Virus genome (UHGV): UHGV-1354657
DNA from: a virus
Reading direction: 5' to 3' (one strand)
DNA: 41,408 bases
Part shown: positions 3,129-21,627 of the stretch, piece by piece
Layout: every line of letters starts with the position of its first letter
How positions within the stretch are numbered: the first letter of the stretch is position 1
Made by a program: the position numbers and the translations under genes
The notes under the pieces: model-generated
Told to the model about the DNA's origin: nothing
Seen by the model: the letters and a program-made list of their open reading frames with translations, nothing else
Database searches by the model: none

Positions 3129-3938
3129 CTATAACACTCCTTTTCTTTTCAATTCTTCTAACATATTAGTAAATTCCTGTCTGCTGAAATGCTCTTTAGT
3201 TATTTTTGTATAATCTGTTAGAGATAGTTTTTTCAATAGTGCCTTCTCTATAAACTCATTTTTTCTAATGTATGTATCTAACATAATATCCCTCATATCG
3301 TTAAACCCTTCCAGATAAGAATCGAAAGTATCGCTAATTTGAGTTTTCTTCTTCTCAAATCCAACTAAAATAGTACTTTTTATATTATCCTCCTTATCAA
3401 AATAGGTTCTATCAACATCCCAGAGTTGTTTAAATAATTCTGCTCCTCTTAAAGAAGAAATGTTTTTATCTTGAATTGGAATAATTATACTATCTGCTAA
3501 GAAAAGCACATTTTTAGCTGTCAAATCGTAGCGTGGAGATAAATCACAGATAATATAATCATACTCACTCAAAGTATTAAAGTTTTGCATGTACCAGCGA
3601 GCTAAAAATTTTTCTCTGGCTGGTAAAGGTGATAGCTCTTGTTCAAATCTAGCCATTTGTATGTCAGAAGGAATTAAGTCTACATTAATGTAATTTCCAT
3701 TAGGTGACTTGACTATTGCATCATTAGCACTAATCCCTTTTAAAATATCTAATGTAGTATTATCATTATGATTTATTTCATAAACATATTGTGTTAGATT
3801 TGCTTGCACATCTAAGTCCCATAAGAGTATTTTTTTATCTTTATCTTTCGCAAGTTCATACGCTGTCATTATAGACGTTGTTGTCTTATAGATACCTCCT
3901 TTTATGTTAAAGTACGTAAGTAGCTTTGTATTAGCCAT
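3129..3938 (-). CDS. parA: ParA/Soj-family partition ATPase
   Basis: Deviant Walker A NIKGGIYKTTTS, then DLDVQANLT and the usual ParA layout. ATG at 3938 is preceded by GAGGTGGAG (the track starts at an upstream GTG). Confidence 0.85.
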   Translation of the reverse strand: MANTKLLTYFNIKGGIYKTTTSIMTAYELAKDKDKKILLWDLDVQANLTQYVYEINHNDNTTLDILKGISANDAIVKSPNGNYINVDLIPSDIQMARFEQELSPLPAREKFLARWYMQNFNTLSEYDYIICDLSPRYDLTAKNVLFLADSIIIPIQDKNISSLRGAELFKQLWDVDRTYFDKEDNIKSTILVGFEKKKTQISDTFDSYLEGFNDMRDIMLDTYIRKNEFIEKALLKKLSLTDYTKITKEHFSRQEFTNMLEELKRKGVL

Positions 3939-3949
3939 TTTCTCCACCT

Positions 3950-4226: not shown

Positions 4227-4409
4227 TCATTCATTCTTAGCCTTTTCAATTATTATCCTGTCGCCCTCGAATGTTGCCGTAACATTAGGGTTTTCTCTTG
4301 TTATGCCCATTTCATCAGCCCATCTCTTGGGAACACTCATTCTAGGGGTAAACGACCCACTCCCACCCCTGTGAAAATTAAATTTTAAATTTCTTTTTTC
4401 TTTTTCCAT
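4227..4409 (-). CDS. AbrB/MazE/SpoVT-family swapped-hairpin DNA-binding protein
   Basis: 60 aa; motif RMSVPKRWADEMGI...GDRIIIEKA typical of the AbrB-N fold. RBS AAGGAG sits 7 nt upstream, and the stop of the upstream peptide gene lies 3 nt before this ATG. Confidence 0.7.
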   Translation of the reverse strand: MEKEKRNLKFNFHRGGSGSFTPRMSVPKRWADEMGITRENPNVTATFEGDRIIIEKAKNE

Positions 4410-4412
4410 TCG

Positions 4413-4574
4413 TTAACTCCTTTTTTGCTGTATTACAAAGAAAAGTAATAATACAACACTAAAAACTAAACCGAGTATGTTGCTTGTACTAGAGTTTAAT
4501 GCTATAGATACTATATTTAAGACTATGGTTATCAAAACTAAAACAATGCAAATCTTATAAAATTTATCACTCAT
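4413..4574 (-). CDS. Small hydrophobic membrane peptide (53 aa, 2 predicted TM segments), translationally coupled to the AbrB-like gene
   Basis: MSDKFYKICIVLVLITIVLNIVSIALNSSTSNILGLVFSVVLLLFFVIQQKRS. Its stop TAA (4413-4415) overlaps the RBS of the AbrB gene. It is below the 60-aa cutoff of the ORF track. Confidence 0.45.
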   Translation of the reverse strand: MSDKFYKICIVLVLITIVLNIVSIALNSSTSNILGLVFSVVLLLFFVIQQKRS

Positions 4575-4647
4575 GTTTTTTAGAAATGTGTTATAATATT
4601 AGAAAGAAGTCACCTAGAGAGAAGGGCTATTCCCTCTAGGCTTATCC

Positions 4648-4776
4648 TTACAGTTCTTTCAAAATTCTTAGAACTGCGAGGATTATGTTAAGTAATAATA
4701 GGATGAAGGAGAAAACTTTTTTAACTATGTTAAATTTGTTTTCTCTCTTCTTTTTACTTCTTTCTAACCTCCCCAT
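4648..4776 (-). CDS. Small cationic-hydrophobic membrane peptide (42 aa), first gene of the peptide-AbrB operon
   Basis: MGRLERSKKKRENKFNIVKKVFSFILLLLNIILAVLRILKEL. RBS AAAGGAGG 8 nt upstream. Promoter TTGTTT-17-TGGTATAAT on the minus strand at about 4846-4875. Confidence 0.45.
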   Translation of the reverse strand: MGRLERSKKKRENKFNIVKKVFSFILLLLNIILAVLRILKEL

Positions 4777-4837
4777 TCCTGTGCCTCCTTTCTTTTATTT
4801 TTTTTGCTTTCTCACCTCCTTCTCTATAAATATATTA

Positions 4838-4880
4838 TACCATGACGGGTCGTCAAAAACAATAGTTTTCTCCTATTTTT
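4838..4880 (-). promoter_or_regulatory. Sigma-A promoter (extended -10) for the small-peptide/AbrB operon
   Basis: Minus-strand sequence TTGTTTTTGACGACCCGTCATGGTATAAT, followed by a purine-rich leader carrying two SD-like GGAGG motifs. Confidence 0.5.
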
Positions 4881-4920
4881 TAAACAAATTTTGGTAAAAA
4901 GTAAAGATTTTAGTATATTA

Positions 4921-5085
4921 GAAATGATGTAAAATTGTATCTTTTTTTAAAAAATGTGATATAATAAAAGCAAGGAAATAATGATTTACTTTACACAAGA
5001 GTAGCTATTTCCAATGTTTTGAAAAATAACTTATTTTCTTAAACCACTCTTATTGGCGTTTGAGTGGTTTTTTAATTTTATCGTT
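4921..5085 (+). ncRNA. sRNA unit 1: promoter plus about 100-nt transcript plus intrinsic terminator; paralog of the type I antitoxin-like RNA
   Basis: Extended -10 TGATATAAT (4958-4966), predicted TSS about 4973, terminator CCACTCTTATTGGCGTTTGAGTGG followed by TTTTTT (5044-5074). The unit repeats (about 165 bp) at 5131-5300. No coding potential. Confidence 0.5.
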
Positions 5086-5130
5086 CTTAAAATAAACTTT
5101 GATAAAAATAAAAAAAAATAGAATACTGAA

Positions 5131-5300
5131 AATGATGTAAAGTTGTATCTTTTAAAGAAAATGTGATATAATAAAAGCAAGAGAACTGTATTCTAGTCAT
5201 AAGAGTAGAGTTTTAGTCTAAAATAAAAAATTATTTAAACTTTTTGAATTTGATTCTCAAATCAAATTCCCAACCACTCTTTTGCGCAGAGTGGTTTTTT
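5131..5300 (+). ncRNA. sRNA unit 2: antisense RNA overlapping the 3' end of the toxin-like peptide gene (type I antitoxin candidate)
   Basis: The same promoter, GAAAATGATGTAAAGTTGTATC...TGATATAAT (5165-5173). Terminator CCACTCTTTTGCGCAGAGTGG plus TTTTTT (5274-5300). It overlaps the minus-strand CDS 5231-5383 over about 70 nt. Confidence 0.55.
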
Positions 5301-5383
5301 ACTTGTCTAAATAATTTGCTAATTATATAGAATATTAAACTAGCTATAACACCAGCTAATACATTAAGTAAAAAATTATCCAT
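5231..5383 (-). CDS. Type I toxin-like small membrane peptide (50 aa)
   Basis: MDNFLLNVLAGVIASLIFYIISKLFRQVKNHSAQKSGWEFDLRIKFKKFK: an N-terminal TM helix with a charged tail. Strong RBS GGGAGGTGA, partly sequestered by the upstream CCTCCC. A convergent antisense sRNA covers the 3' end. Confidence 0.55.
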   Translation of the reverse strand: MDNFLLNVLAGVIASLIFYIISKLFRQVKNHSAQKSGWEFDLRIKFKKFK

Positions 5384-5497
5384 ACTTCATCACCTCCCTT
5401 TGTAGCGTTGGGAGGATAATCTTTTGTGTATAGACTCCACTCTTTTTTTAGAATATAGATTGCTTTCTCTTGCTAAAATTATTATAACATATATTTA

Positions 5498-5534
5498 CAT
5501 AAAAAAAGACTTAGTTTATATACTAAGTCTTTTA
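5498..5534. terminator. Bidirectional rho-independent terminator
   Basis: AAAAAAAGACTTAGTttataTACTAAGTCTTTT. It insulates the toxin promoter from the helicase control region. Confidence 0.65.
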
Positions 5535-5605
5535 AAATGCAGTATTTTAGAAAATATATTTTTAAAATATAATTTATTTTCAAAAAGAGTATATTTTTTT
5601 ATAAT

Positions 5606-5901
5606 TTAAATGTGCTATAATTATAATCACAACGAACAGAAAACTTTTTTTTAATTGGTTTAAAAAAATCTACAAAAAAATAAACAAGGAACATGTACTT
5701 GCCGTCAAACAACCATGTTCCTTACACCGGAGGTTAGACCTCTCTTAAGGATAATATATCCTTGTTTTTCTATACTTATATTTATATTATAAGACAAAGT
5801 GTAGAAAAACACAAGGTTTTTAGGGTAATTTTAATAGTAAAATTATTACAAAAAATCAAAAAAAGAGCGTCAGCCTCCAGGTAAAAAATGGAGGGATAAA
5901 G
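5606..5901 (+). promoter_or_regulatory. Promoter and about 270-nt structured leader of the helicase gene (attenuation/RBS-sequestration candidate)
   Basis: Extended -10 TGCTATAAT (5613-5621). A perfect 10-bp hairpin AAGGAACATG-N18-CATGTTCCTT (5686-5722). Hairpin GGAGGTtagACCTC (5728-5742). A weak terminator-like hairpin plus a T-run (5746-5770). CCTCCA...TGGAGG overlaps the RBS (5873-5896). Confidence 0.5.
5670..5779 (-). ncRNA. Predicted countertranscript antisense to the helicase leader
   Basis: Minus-strand promoter TTGTGT-17-TATAAT (plus-strand coordinates 5809-5814 and 5786-5791). The complement of leader hairpin 1 is followed on the minus strand by GTTTATTTTTTT, an intrinsic terminator. 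Predicted length about 110 nt. Confidence 0.4.
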
Positions 5902-8067
5902 ATGGAAAATAATAATAAAAATAATATAGATAAGATGTTTTTAGAAGAATGTAGCGCTGAAAGAGCAGAGCATGAAAAAGAAAATTATTCAAATTTCAAT
6001 AGACATGAAACATATGAAATAAAAAAATATATAAACGAAAAAAAACTAGGAATTAAAACGGCTATAGCCAACGCGATAAATGGCGGGAAAACCCTGTTTA
6101 TTGCACCGACAGGAGCAGGAAAAAGTTATAGCTTTATAAATACATTAAAAAAATTAAAAACAAAAGCGTTATTCATACTTCCAAATGCCTCAAATGTAGA
6201 GCAGGCAATGCACGAGTATGATATACCAGGAGCATATGACAAAATACCTGTTAGCGAAGCATTTAAAAGTGGCAACTTAGTTGTAATGACTTGGGATAAA
6301 ACCGAAAAACTTATAAATACAGACTTAAGTGAATACATAATTGTAGTTGATGAGATACATCAAACTTATACAGATGCATATCGAGGAAAAGCAATAAAAA
6401 ATTTAAATAATATAATGTCTAAGTGCAAAGGAAGAATAGACATTACAGCAACACCAACAAAACTTGAATTTGAAATATATGACTACATAATAGAGTACAC
6501 TCAAAAGCAAAAAACAGAATATAAAGTTAAATTGTACAACGACTTTGACAATAAAAATTTTACTGAAATGATTAACATAATAAATAAATCTAAAAACAGC
6601 GCCATGTTGATGAATGATATATCAACATTAGAATTTATAAGAGATTCAGTGAACAAAAAAGTTGGAGTTGTATATGCAGATGGAAAAGAAGAAAATGAAT
6701 TGTACAATAGAATAGTTAAAAATTCAGACATGAAAGACTATGAAACGCTTTTAAATACAACAACAATCCTAGCTGGTGTAAATATAAACAACAAAGATAT
6801 CACAGATATAATTATTGTTAATATAAAAGATGTTGGAGCTATAAAACAGTATGTTGCGAGGTTTAGAAACTTAAAAAAAGTAAATGTACACATATTCAAT
6901 AAATATGAAGAAGAGTGCAATGTATACAAAATTGAATGGCTAGTTAACAAAAATATAGAAAAAGCAACTATCTTAAAAGATGCTTATAACAAAGTATCTA
7001 AACACATGTTACAGTTTGAAACAGTTGGAATAAATGCAACGCCAATTCGCATAGACTCAAATGTGTACTACTGTACAAAAGATAATTGCTATAAAGTAGA
7101 TAAATTATATATAAAAAGTCAAGTTTACAGCAACTATTACAATACAAGAACAATTCAAAGTTTTAAAGTGCTATTAGAAGAATATTTTGAAAATGTTAAT
7201 ATAACTGATGCTAAAGAAGTTGGCACAAATGAAAAAGAGTTAAAAGAGTACAAGAAAGTTGTAAAAGAAATTAAAGATGCAACAAGAGAAATTTTAAAAG
7301 AACATAAAGAAATTCTAGTAGGTTATAGACAGATTAAAAGCGATTCTAAGAGCTTTTCACTAATGCAGTATCATAATGATATGAAACTAAGTTCAAAAGG
7401 GTGCTTAGAGGCTTACAGAGCGTATGACATACATAATTTGGTAAAGAAAAGTAAAAGTAATAGCATGTTAGAACTATATTCTAATTATGTACTAGATAAT
7501 AAGTTCGACTTAGACCTTGCGTGGAAATTAGCAAATTTATCAAATCGAAAGCGTGGAGCAGTATTTAATAAAATAAATACTTTGATATATAGAGAATTAA
7601 AAGAAGAATGCCCAGAATTTTTAAATGATGAACTTATTCAAGTTACAGTATTTAATTTCATAGATAAGCTATTTGGGATTGGAACATCTTATACAGAACT
7701 TCATTTACAAGAGTTAAGTAACGACTTAAGAACGTTTTTAGGAGAGAATTGGGGGTTAAACACTAAAAAAATAGGTTGTATATTGAACGAAATTTTCGTA
7801 ATAGAAAAGAAAAAATATAGAAGTGTGAACCACTTAGAAAATATCTTTTTTTATAAAAATATGAATCCTAAGTGGTTCACAGTAGAAGTTAAACAAATAC
7901 AACTTAGCAATATAAAAAGATATGTAACTGTTGATGACATAAAAAAAGAATTAGAATTAGATAAAAAAGATAATAGCTTAGAGCGTGCTATAAAATATAC
8001 AAAAGATAGAATGTTAAACTCTTTAGATGAAGATGAAAAACTATTGCTATTAAAAGGATTGATGTAA
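5902..8067 (+). CDS. Superfamily-2 (DEAD/DEAH-box-like) helicase with a roughly 370-aa C-terminal domain of unknown function; candidate replication protein
   Basis: Motif I APTGAGKS, Ia LFILPN, II VVDEIH, III TATP, V TTTILAGVNI, VI QYVARFRN. RBS TGGAGGGA. No match to a named Rep family recognised from sequence alone. Confidence 0.8.
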   Translation: MENNNKNNIDKMFLEECSAERAEHEKENYSNFNRHETYEIKKYINEKKLGIKTAIANAINGGKTLFIAPTGAGKSYSFINTLKKLKTKALFILPNASNVEQAMHEYDIPGAYDKIPVSEAFKSGNLVVMTWDKTEKLINTDLSEYIIVVDEIHQTYTDAYRGKAIKNLNNIMSKCKGRIDITATPTKLEFEIYDYIIEYTQKQKTEYKVKLYNDFDNKNFTEMINIINKSKNSAMLMNDISTLEFIRDSVNKKVGVVYADGKEENELYNRIVKNSDMKDYETLLNTTTILAGVNINNKDITDIIIVNIKDVGAIKQYVARFRNLKKVNVHIFNKYEEECNVYKIEWLVNKNIEKATILKDAYNKVSKHMLQFETVGINATPIRIDSNVYYCTKDNCYKVDKLYIKSQVYSNYYNTRTIQSFKVLLEEYFENVNITDAKEVGTNEKELKEYKKVVKEIKDATREILKEHKEILVGYRQIKSDSKSFSLMQYHNDMKLSSKGCLEAYRAYDIHNLVKKSKSNSMLELYSNYVLDNKFDLDLAWKLANLSNRKRGAVFNKINTLIYRELKEECPEFLNDELIQVTVFNFIDKLFGIGTSYTELHLQELSNDLRTFLGENWGLNTKKIGCILNEIFVIEKKKYRSVNHLENIFFYKNMNPKWFTVEVKQIQLSNIKRYVTVDDIKKELELDKKDNSLERAIKYTKDRMLNSLDEDEKLLLLKGLM

Positions 8068-21496: not shown

Positions 21497-21627
21497 TAAG
21501 GCTTATTTTTATGCTTAAAAATACTTAATTCATTTATATAGATGTCTACTAAGCGACGTAAAAAGTTAGACAATATGTGATGCTACCACGTAAAAAGCGT
21601 AATTGTAAACGAAAGCAGGAGGTTTTT

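Follow-up and report, generated by a model that had tools for sequence, protein, structure and literature searches.

Several toxin-antitoxin (TA) modules of type I from Clostridioides difficile have been characterized in which the gene for a small membrane peptide and that for its antisense RNA are transcribed convergently. In these relatives the toxin localizes to the membrane, growth arrests upon induction, the antisense RNA protects cells from the toxin both in cis and in trans, and the transcripts have been studied by Northern blots and their ends mapped by rapid amplification of cDNA ends (RACE) (Maikova et al. 2018, PMC5961336; Peltier et al. 2020, PMC7699646). Toxicity and rescue have been shown for CD2517.1, CD2907.1/CD0956.2, CD0977.1, CD0904.1, and CD0956.3; RNase III cleaves the antisense-mRNA duplex in vitro, and the antitoxin has a half-life of ~13 min compared with ~35 min for the mRNA (PMC5961336, PMC7699646). 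In addition, four modules of phiCD630-1 stabilize a test plasmid (Peltier et al. 2020, PMC7699646). Here we analyze a locus of the UHGV virus genome UHGV-1354657, a DNA stretch of 41,408 nt (hereafter the window), in which a gene for a 50-amino-acid (aa) peptide on the minus strand is overlapped by a candidate antisense RNA gene on the plus strand. Our analysis supports, with a probability of roughly 0.88, the conclusion that this locus is a type I TA module of phiCD38-2-like C. difficile phages, that it belongs to the CD2517.1/CD0956.2/CD2907.1 family, whose antitoxins are RCd8/9/10, and that it stabilizes the plasmid-like prophage. The function of this particular copy, comprising its transcripts, its toxicity, and its stabilizing activity, we infer from the relatives. 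An initial annotation, made from the DNA sequence alone, had likewise proposed a type I TA, and the match to a dedicated family model (NF047374.1), the identity to phiCD38-2 gp33, and an antisense gene that corresponds element for element to those of characterized relatives all argue for that proposal.

The module itself is already described. The toxin, phiCD38-2 gp33, is listed as a type I TA toxin located beside parA, with a presumed role in phage maintenance (Peltier et al. 2020, PMC7699646, Discussion), and in this respect our main finding adds little that is new. Our literature search found no mention of phiCD38-2 gp33 other than Peltier et al. 2020 and no expression data for it; the text and supplement of that paper name the toxin only, and we found in them no description of the phiCD38-2 antitoxin gene, the transcript ends, the mRNA fold, or the neighboring orphan antitoxin. 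What the present analysis adds are the exact coordinates of the RNA parts, an mRNA fold supported by covariation, and the orphan antitoxin.

A 1.65-kb stretch around the locus is 98% identical, over its full length, to phiCD38-2, slur17, CDSH1, and AR1075-1, and equally to the C. difficile plasmids pCd23_2 and NZ_CP021446. Phages of the phiCD38-2 type are Leicestervirus siphophages that persist as circular plasmid-like prophages. In the phiCD38-2 annotation the 50-aa open reading frame (ORF) is gp33, a "putative membrane protein," and RefSeq lists it as hypothetical. It is flanked on one side by parA (gp30; 3129-3947, minus strand) and on the other by a DEAD/DEAH helicase gene (gp35; 5902-8067, plus strand).

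The toxin gene (5231-5383, minus strand) starts with ATG and encodes the 50-aa peptide MDNFLLNVLAGVIASLIFYIISKLFRQVKNHSAQKSGWEFDLRIKFKKFK, which is 100% identical to phiCD38-2 gp33 and is referred to by that name below. The N-terminal transmembrane helix and Lys-rich tail noted in the initial annotation are both evident from the ORF list and composition, with ~25 hydrophobic residues at the N terminus and, in the C-terminal 25 residues, six Lys and two Arg compared with one Asp and one Glu. The peptide thus has the size and composition typical of the family (30-56 aa, a hydrophobic N terminus, and a Lys-rich, positively charged C terminus). The NCBIfam equivalog model NF047374.1, "CD_typeI_toxin," matches it at 94.3 bits, against a cut-off of 60 bits (E = 4.2e-27, 1-50/1-51). 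The peptide also matches phrog_738, a family of unknown function in PHROGs, while a Pfam scan at E <= 1 gave only subthreshold matches to FtsX and FeoB_associated and no family at the gathering score. Its identity to the characterized toxins is 53-68% for the CD0977.1 and CD0956.2 types (68% for the CD0956.2 type itself) and ~31% for the short CD0904.1 type.

A collection of 5.8 billion proteins contained 16 matches, all from Clostridioides or without a source name, several of which are named "type I toxin-antitoxin system toxin" in NCBI and UniRef. By tblastn (E <= 0.01) the family was found in 60 phage and 37 plasmid records, all Clostridioides and most covering at least 80% of the peptide, and a scan of species-representative genome contigs located family members in C. 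difficile chromosomes as well; that scan returned Clostridioides loci only, apart from one contig labeled as a Veillonella metagenome-assembled genome (MAG). The identical peptide is present in five phage records, representing four phages, and in two plasmid records. Across codons 2-27, which lie outside the antisense overlap, the ratio of nonsynonymous to synonymous changes (pN/pS) against 14 homologues is 0.12-0.77, mostly 0.25-0.4. Because these values are below 1 where no antisense RNA constrains the sequence, the peptide itself is judged to be under purifying selection.

To define the RNA parts of the module, the window was aligned using MAFFT with 20 other loci from phages, plasmids, and chromosomes, extending down to 50% module identity. 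In all 21 loci both promoters, the Shine-Dalgarno (SD) sequence, the AGAGTGGAG motif of the 5' untranslated region (UTR), as well as the hairpin within the ORF, AAAAA(A/G)CC(A/G)CTC...GAG(T/C)GG(T/C)T, are in register. The sequences of the characterized modules are shown only in figures of the papers and supplements, and the comparison was anchored on published primers and transcript lengths. Exact sites for published primers were found in two loci, L010 and L029. L010, one of the 21 loci, carries a CD0956.2/RCd10-type module, encodes a 53-aa toxin, and contains exact sites for JP219 (CD0956.2 deletion arm), JP419, and JP478/JP660 (RCd8/RCd10 promoter end). Placing the toxin transcription start site (TSS) of L010 at the conserved A of TTTTAGCAAGA and its antitoxin TSS at the A of GCAAG gives 83 nt for the 5' UTR, 298 nt for the mRNA, and 134 nt for the antitoxin, and these lengths equal the published RACE values exactly, including the coincidence of the mRNA 3' end with the antitoxin TSS. 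L010 is CAAFUD010000036.1, the 35-kb contig labeled as an uncultured Veillonella sp. MAG; it carries exact matches to C. difficile 630 primers and is probably misbinned C. difficile or prophage DNA.

The antitoxin promoter (5143-5172, plus strand) consists of a -35-like TTGTAT (5143-5148), an 18-nt spacer, and the extended -10 element TGATATAAT (5164-5172), in which the TATAAT at 5167-5172 is preceded by TGA. On this strand TGTGnTATAATAAAAGC hardly varies: only a few of the 21 loci depart from it, each by a single base. Transfer of the RCd10 ends would place the antitoxin TSS at ~A5179, which is also the predicted 3' end of the toxin mRNA, and the antitoxin 3' end at ~C5302. The resulting ~124-nt small RNA (5179-5302, plus strand) is predicted to contain a 5' stem-loop, a central stem-loop formed by GAAUUUGAUU and AAUCAAAUUC, and a terminator. 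Its fold has a z score of -4.4 and is better than those of all 200 shuffled sequences, and it is 64% identical to the RCd10-type RNA. Over its full length, the predicted antitoxin is complementary to the final 124 nt at the mRNA 3' end, a stretch that takes in the last 72 nt of the ORF (5231-5302). The overlap of about 70 nt proposed in the initial annotation therefore holds for the ORF portion, but not for the two RNAs, which are predicted to overlap over the whole antitoxin, ~124 nt.

Transcription of the antitoxin would end at an intrinsic terminator inside the toxin coding sequence (5272-5301, plus strand), identified by a terminator scan, in which a 9-bp, GC-containing stem of AACCACUCU and AGAGUGGUU (5272-5296) is followed by TTTTTT. 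In the 1.65 kb scanned (4300-5950) there were three such sites compared with 0.4 expected, and no second match to the hairpin pattern exists in the window, for which 0 matches are expected. As first described, then, there is a plus-strand gene with an extended -10 element and an intrinsic terminator, and both are conserved in the 21 loci. The arms of the terminator stem encode the best-conserved C-terminal toxin motifs, NHS (K-N/S-H-S) and KSGW, whereas the loop encodes the sole length-variable linker in the protein alignment. Since the terminator lies within the toxin ORF, part of what appears as protein conservation is RNA constraint. RNAalifold predicts three helices on the antitoxin strand that are 95.5% paired in 17 distinct sequences, compared with 29-51% when the structure is slid along the alignment. 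The terminator helix is 100% paired in these sequences and shows compensatory changes at two positions, with A-U/G-C exchanges in 7-8 loci (about half) and a change from A-U to G-C in pCD5401_3; these covariation counts, and those for the mRNA given below, are to be read in light of the facts that the hairpins form on both strands, that the sequences are related by descent, and that the structure was derived from the same alignment. An Rfam scan of the whole window at gathering thresholds gave no model for either RNA, the antisense RNA included, and a scan for consensus sigma-70 promoters listed neither promoter of the module. The latter is because their -35 boxes match the consensus at only 3/6 positions, and both promoters were instead located by sequence reading and conservation.

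On the opposite strand, the toxin promoter contains the extended -10 element TGTTATAAT (5481-5489, minus strand). Nearly all 21 loci keep the sequence TATGnTATAAT followed by TTTTAGCAAGA, with single-base variants in a few. With ends transferred from the CD0956.2 RACE data, the toxin TSS is predicted at ~A5474, giving a 5' UTR of ~91 nt and an mRNA of ~296 nt (5179-5474, minus strand) in place of the roughly 250 nt given in the initial annotation. The SD sequence GGGAGGTG (5391-5398, minus strand) is located 7 nt before the ATG, and its GGAGGTG is invariant in the 21 loci. It pairs, across an 11-nt loop, with an anti-SD CCUCCC (5410-5415, minus strand) both in the minimum free energy fold and in the consensus fold of 18 of the 21 loci, the set used for all mRNA structure counts, which bears out the early suggestion that a strong ribosome-binding site is partly sequestered by an upstream CCUCCC. 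In the consensus, this helix (columns 66-71/85-90) is 92.6% paired, and one of its pairs changes from CG to UA in five loci.

The predicted mRNA fold as a whole reaches -93.1 kcal/mol (z = -10.0) and is better than those of all 100 shuffled sequences. Its consensus contains five helices: the SD/anti-SD helix, a 5' UTR-AUG helix that is likewise present in the minimum free energy fold, a long-range 5' UTR-3' UTR helix, an N-terminal coding hairpin, and an internal hairpin mirroring the antitoxin terminator. Together these are 96.1% paired, compared with 37-46% when slid, and nine pairs are changed on both sides compared with 2.6 +/- 1.0 in shuffles. The SD and AUG are placed inside a domain closed by a 10-bp helix between AGAGUGGAGU of the 5' UTR (5443-5434) and ACUCUACUCU of the 3' UTR (5211-5202). 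This closing helix is conserved in the 18 loci, with both-sided changes at two positions. The toxin and antitoxin transcripts share homology in their 5' regions, which form an inverted repeat at the module ends (5173-5195 and 5449-5471), and it is because of this repeat that the toxin mRNA is able to close on itself. The predicted closing helix suggests a hok-like activation step, which has not been described for this C. difficile family.

Collectively, these elements are consistent with a mechanism in which a constitutive extended -10 promoter would produce the ~296-nt minus-strand mRNA for the gp33 membrane peptide, as conservation and the RACE data from relatives indicate. According to the in silico fold and its covariation support, this mRNA would be poorly translated on its own, with the SD (through CCUCCC) and the AUG base-paired within the domain closed by the 5' and 3' UTRs. 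The convergent promoter would give rise to the ~124-nt plus-strand RNA, terminated within the toxin ORF and able to pair without mismatch to the mRNA's 3' 124 nt. As established in the relatives, the two RNAs would then form a full duplex that is degraded in an RNase-dependent manner, the antisense RNA being the more labile partner. Upon loss of the episomal prophage the antitoxin would decay first, and gp33 would be made and enter the membrane, growth would stop, and the prophage would thereby be stabilized.

Several points weigh against this interpretation. Both -35 elements are weak (3/6), and promoter activity is argued from the extended -10 elements and homology. The covariation in the terminator hairpin does not distinguish which strand is selected, as the hairpin forms on both. 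Binding of the antitoxin should open the 5'-3' helix and could in this way expose, rather than hide, the start region. In characterized relatives RNase depletion has only moderate effects (PMC5961336, PMC7699646), and the published mention of phiCD38-2 gp33 rests on an in silico search (Peltier et al. 2020, PMC7699646). A chance small ORF beside an unrelated terminator hairpin could be argued from the 34 ORFs of at least 25 aa in 4 kb of this AT-rich phage DNA and from promoter-like sites that are not enriched (13 compared with 9.6 expected). It is refuted by the hidden Markov model match (E = 4e-27), the 60 phage and 37 plasmid tblastn records, the in-register conservation, the RNA covariation, and the unique hairpin, and its probability is practically negligible.

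A genuine family member might instead have become an inactive relic, its toxin unexpressed or no longer toxic. Decayed copies of the family do occur nearby and in relatives, namely a truncated toxin at 5034-5078, phiCD146 with no intact ORF, and phiCDHM11 with a truncated toxin, but in the gp33 module every element is intact, from the ATG and SD to the two extended -10 boxes and the terminator, U-run included, and the purifying selection (pN/pS 0.12-0.77) and the identical peptide in five phage and two plasmid records make decay quite improbable. It is also conceivable that the locus is a bona fide type I TA whose main role is other than prophage maintenance, such as abortive infection, keeping out rival phages, or halting growth of the lysogen in response to stress. 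Abortive infection and persistence are listed in the literature as other roles of TA systems, the chromosomal relatives adjoin clustered regularly interspaced short palindromic repeat (CRISPR) arrays and share control by Sigma B and biofilm factors (PMC5961336, PMC7699646), and the neighboring orphan antitoxin hints at an interplay of different phages. However, a location beside parA on an episomal prophage is the classical site of a post-segregational killing cassette, four related modules stabilize a test plasmid (PMC7699646), and the sequence gives no hint of a phage sensor; we therefore consider such a main role unlikely and retain prophage stabilization by a type I TA as the preferred interpretation.

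Immediately beside the gp33 module lies a second, orphan antitoxin-like gene of the CD0904.1-RCd13 type (4935-5074, plus strand), with a -35-like TTGTAT (4935-4940) and the same extended -10 element TGATATAAT (4957-4965). It lies outside the gp33 module but belongs to the same superfamily. The window holds just two copies of TATAATAAAAGCAAG, at 4960 and 5167, and the second set of promoter and terminator copies lies 207-227 bp upstream of that of the gp33 antitoxin (direct repeats D1, D2, and D5). The predicted orphan RNA is ~105 nt (4970-5074, plus strand) and has a terminator hairpin at 5043-5069. Opposite it is a short-toxin remnant (5034-5078, minus strand) that ends in KLKNHSNANKSGLRK and a stop codon and is without the N-terminal membrane part, SD, and promoter. 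At 104 of 105 positions the orphan RNA gene is identical to the antitoxin that phiCD506 carries within an intact module, where the 105-nt RNA gene faces an intact 32-aa toxin, MVINFLLSILAGVISAFLYEKIKNHSNANKSG, equipped with an SD, an anti-SD, the AGAGTGG motif, and the TGTTATAAT promoter. CDMH1 encodes a CD0904.1-type toxin with 77% identity to that of phiCD506, and in its homologous locus the published CD0904.1/RCd13 primers JP595 and JP635 find exact sites. When the phiCD506 and CD0904.1-type toxins were compared with the window by tblastn, the match comprised residues 21-32/35 only, such that just the last 15 codons remain, and homology between the window and phiCD506 ends at ~5080, just past the orphan terminator. 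The orphan gene is present in phiCD38-2, CDSH1, slur17, AR1075-1, phiCD111, and others and is annotated in none of them; in Hain-Saunders-2022a its hairpin shows a compensatory change. The intact short-toxin modules of phiCD506 and CDMH1 led us to reject the view of 4915-5082 as a degenerate copy of either the gp33 module or one of the LIBA2945 type. A 49-aa ORF with a TTG start that runs into the toxin remnant (5031-5180, minus strand) was also judged not to be a gene, as it is not preceded by an SD, its start falls within the 5' region of the antitoxin, and no family model matches it.

The orphan unit may be debris of the recombination that joined the two modules. A more speculative reading, which we regard as possible but doubtful, is that the orphan RNA (4970-5074) would be a functional antitoxin that neutralizes the phiCD506/JD032-type toxin in trans and so would serve as an anti-addiction device. 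This is weakened by the finding that the whole flanking block (4300-5080 of the window) is shared with phiCD506/JD032-type elements at ~96% identity. Plasmid-prophages of that type may be incompatible with this phage, the parA-side region being shared, and if the orphan antitoxin were functional, a phiCD38-2-like phage could displace a resident phiCD506-like element without post-segregational killing. To our knowledge, no type I system has been reported to provide RNA-based anti-addiction between plasmid-prophages in competition. The orphan RNA may also cross-talk weakly with the gp33 mRNA. In phiCDHM11 (L025, 22,000-23,500) the orphan antitoxin unit is followed by a gp33-type toxin without its N terminus, and phiCD146 (L021) has no intact gp33 ORF and is without the orphan unit. 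The region beside parA appears to be a recombination hot spot.

Other features surround the two modules. Upstream of the toxin promoter is a perfect-palindrome hairpin (5504-5533), which is terminator-like on the minus strand and is present in phiCD111 and Hain-Saunders-2022a; it probably insulates the module. A 61-aa ORF with a TTG start (5424-5609, plus strand), which the phiCD38-2 annotation lists as gp34, a "putative secreted protein," spans the toxin 5' UTR, the toxin promoter, and this palindromic terminator, is without annotation in the related RefSeq plasmid pCd23_2, and is probably not a gene. On the parA side, gp32 (4648-4776, minus strand) encodes a 42-aa peptide with a Lys/Arg-rich N terminus and a C-terminal hydrophobic helix, which matches phrog_5134 (unknown function). 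It is apparently monocistronic, with a promoter-like site at 4856-4829 and a strong terminator at 4641-4612, and might represent a further small membrane toxin or function in exclusion. The adjoining region 4227-4574 (minus strand) encodes gp31, a 60-aa AbrB/MazE/SpoVT-like protein with a weak match to Pfam MazE_antitoxin (E = 0.008); the 53-aa ORF immediately upstream of gp31 is double-hydrophobic and falls into phrog_11497 ("membrane protein"). In one related plasmid a "PemI" is annotated in this region. The sole Rfam match in the window is a GP20-b motif (RF03003) at 21543-21601 (plus strand), scoring 53.4 bits against a gathering score of 36.2.

For gp33, which public records give only as a hypothetical or membrane protein, coordinates are now supplied for the antitoxin, promoters, terminator, and mRNA fold, and the antisense RNA gene ought to be included in the annotation of phiCD38-2-like phages and plasmids. 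The gp33 toxin is a possible counter-selection marker, a use already made of CD2517.1. The analysis also illustrates that a type I TA is recognizable from raw sequence by tool-free reading.

Among known systems, the toxin is the same gene as phiCD38-2 gp33, with 100% identity in protein and ~98% in the surrounding DNA. Also close are CD0956.2-RCd10 and CD2907.1-RCd9 of phiCD630-1 and phiCD630-2, and CD2517.1-RCd8, which encode homologous toxins matched by the same NCBIfam model and have the same convergent layout (Maikova et al. 2018, PMC5961336). The gp33 module shares with these the extended -10 promoters and, after them, AGCAAGA at either transcription start, the AGAGUGGAG motif in the 5' UTR, the sequestered GGAGGUG, a distance of ~300 nt from TSS to TSS, and an antitoxin terminator located inside the ORF across the KxHS...KSGW codons. 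The family mRNA is ~300 nt with an 83- to 88-nt 5' UTR and a sequestered ribosome-binding site, and for gp33 an mRNA of 296 nt with a 91-nt 5' UTR and a paired SD is predicted. There are differences, however. The gp33 toxin has 50 aa compared with 53 in the CD0956.2 type, the shorter linker corresponding to the terminator loop; its antitoxin, at ~64% identity to the RCd10 type, is presumably not interchangeable; and the module adjoins parA on an episomal siphophage, whereas the CD0956.2, CD2907.1, and CD2517.1 relatives adjoin a CRISPR array. The short-toxin modules CD0904.1-RCd13 and CD0956.3-RCd14 of phiCD630-1 (Peltier et al. 2020) represent the subfamily of the unit at 4935-5080 in the window, in which the toxin is cut to its C-terminal 15 codons.

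Fst/RNAI-RNAII (par of pAD1), txpA/RatA and bsrG/SR4 of Bacillus prophages, and hok/Sok of R1 all combine a small membrane toxin with an antisense RNA that overlaps the mRNA, a sequestered SD, and a stable mRNA opposed to a labile antisense RNA, and stabilize mobile elements. The initial annotation had likened the locus to Fst/RNAII, txpA/RatA, and the C. difficile prophage toxins alike; the last likeness is one of homology, whereas Fst, txpA, bsrG, and hok have no sequence relationship to gp33, which falls into neither the Fst/Ldr nor the TxpA/BsrG family of Pfam at gathering score, so that their layout is analogous, not homologous. The authors of the C. difficile studies likewise report no homology to those toxins (PMC5961336, PMC7699646). 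As in txpA/RatA and bsrG/SR4, the antisense overlap of the gp33 module is at the mRNA 3' end, and its predicted 5'-3' closing helix resembles the fold-back inhibitory (fbi) pairing of hok mRNA. The geometry of its full 3' overlap differs, in contrast, from the 5' direct repeats employed by Fst and the 5' leader employed by hok/Sok.

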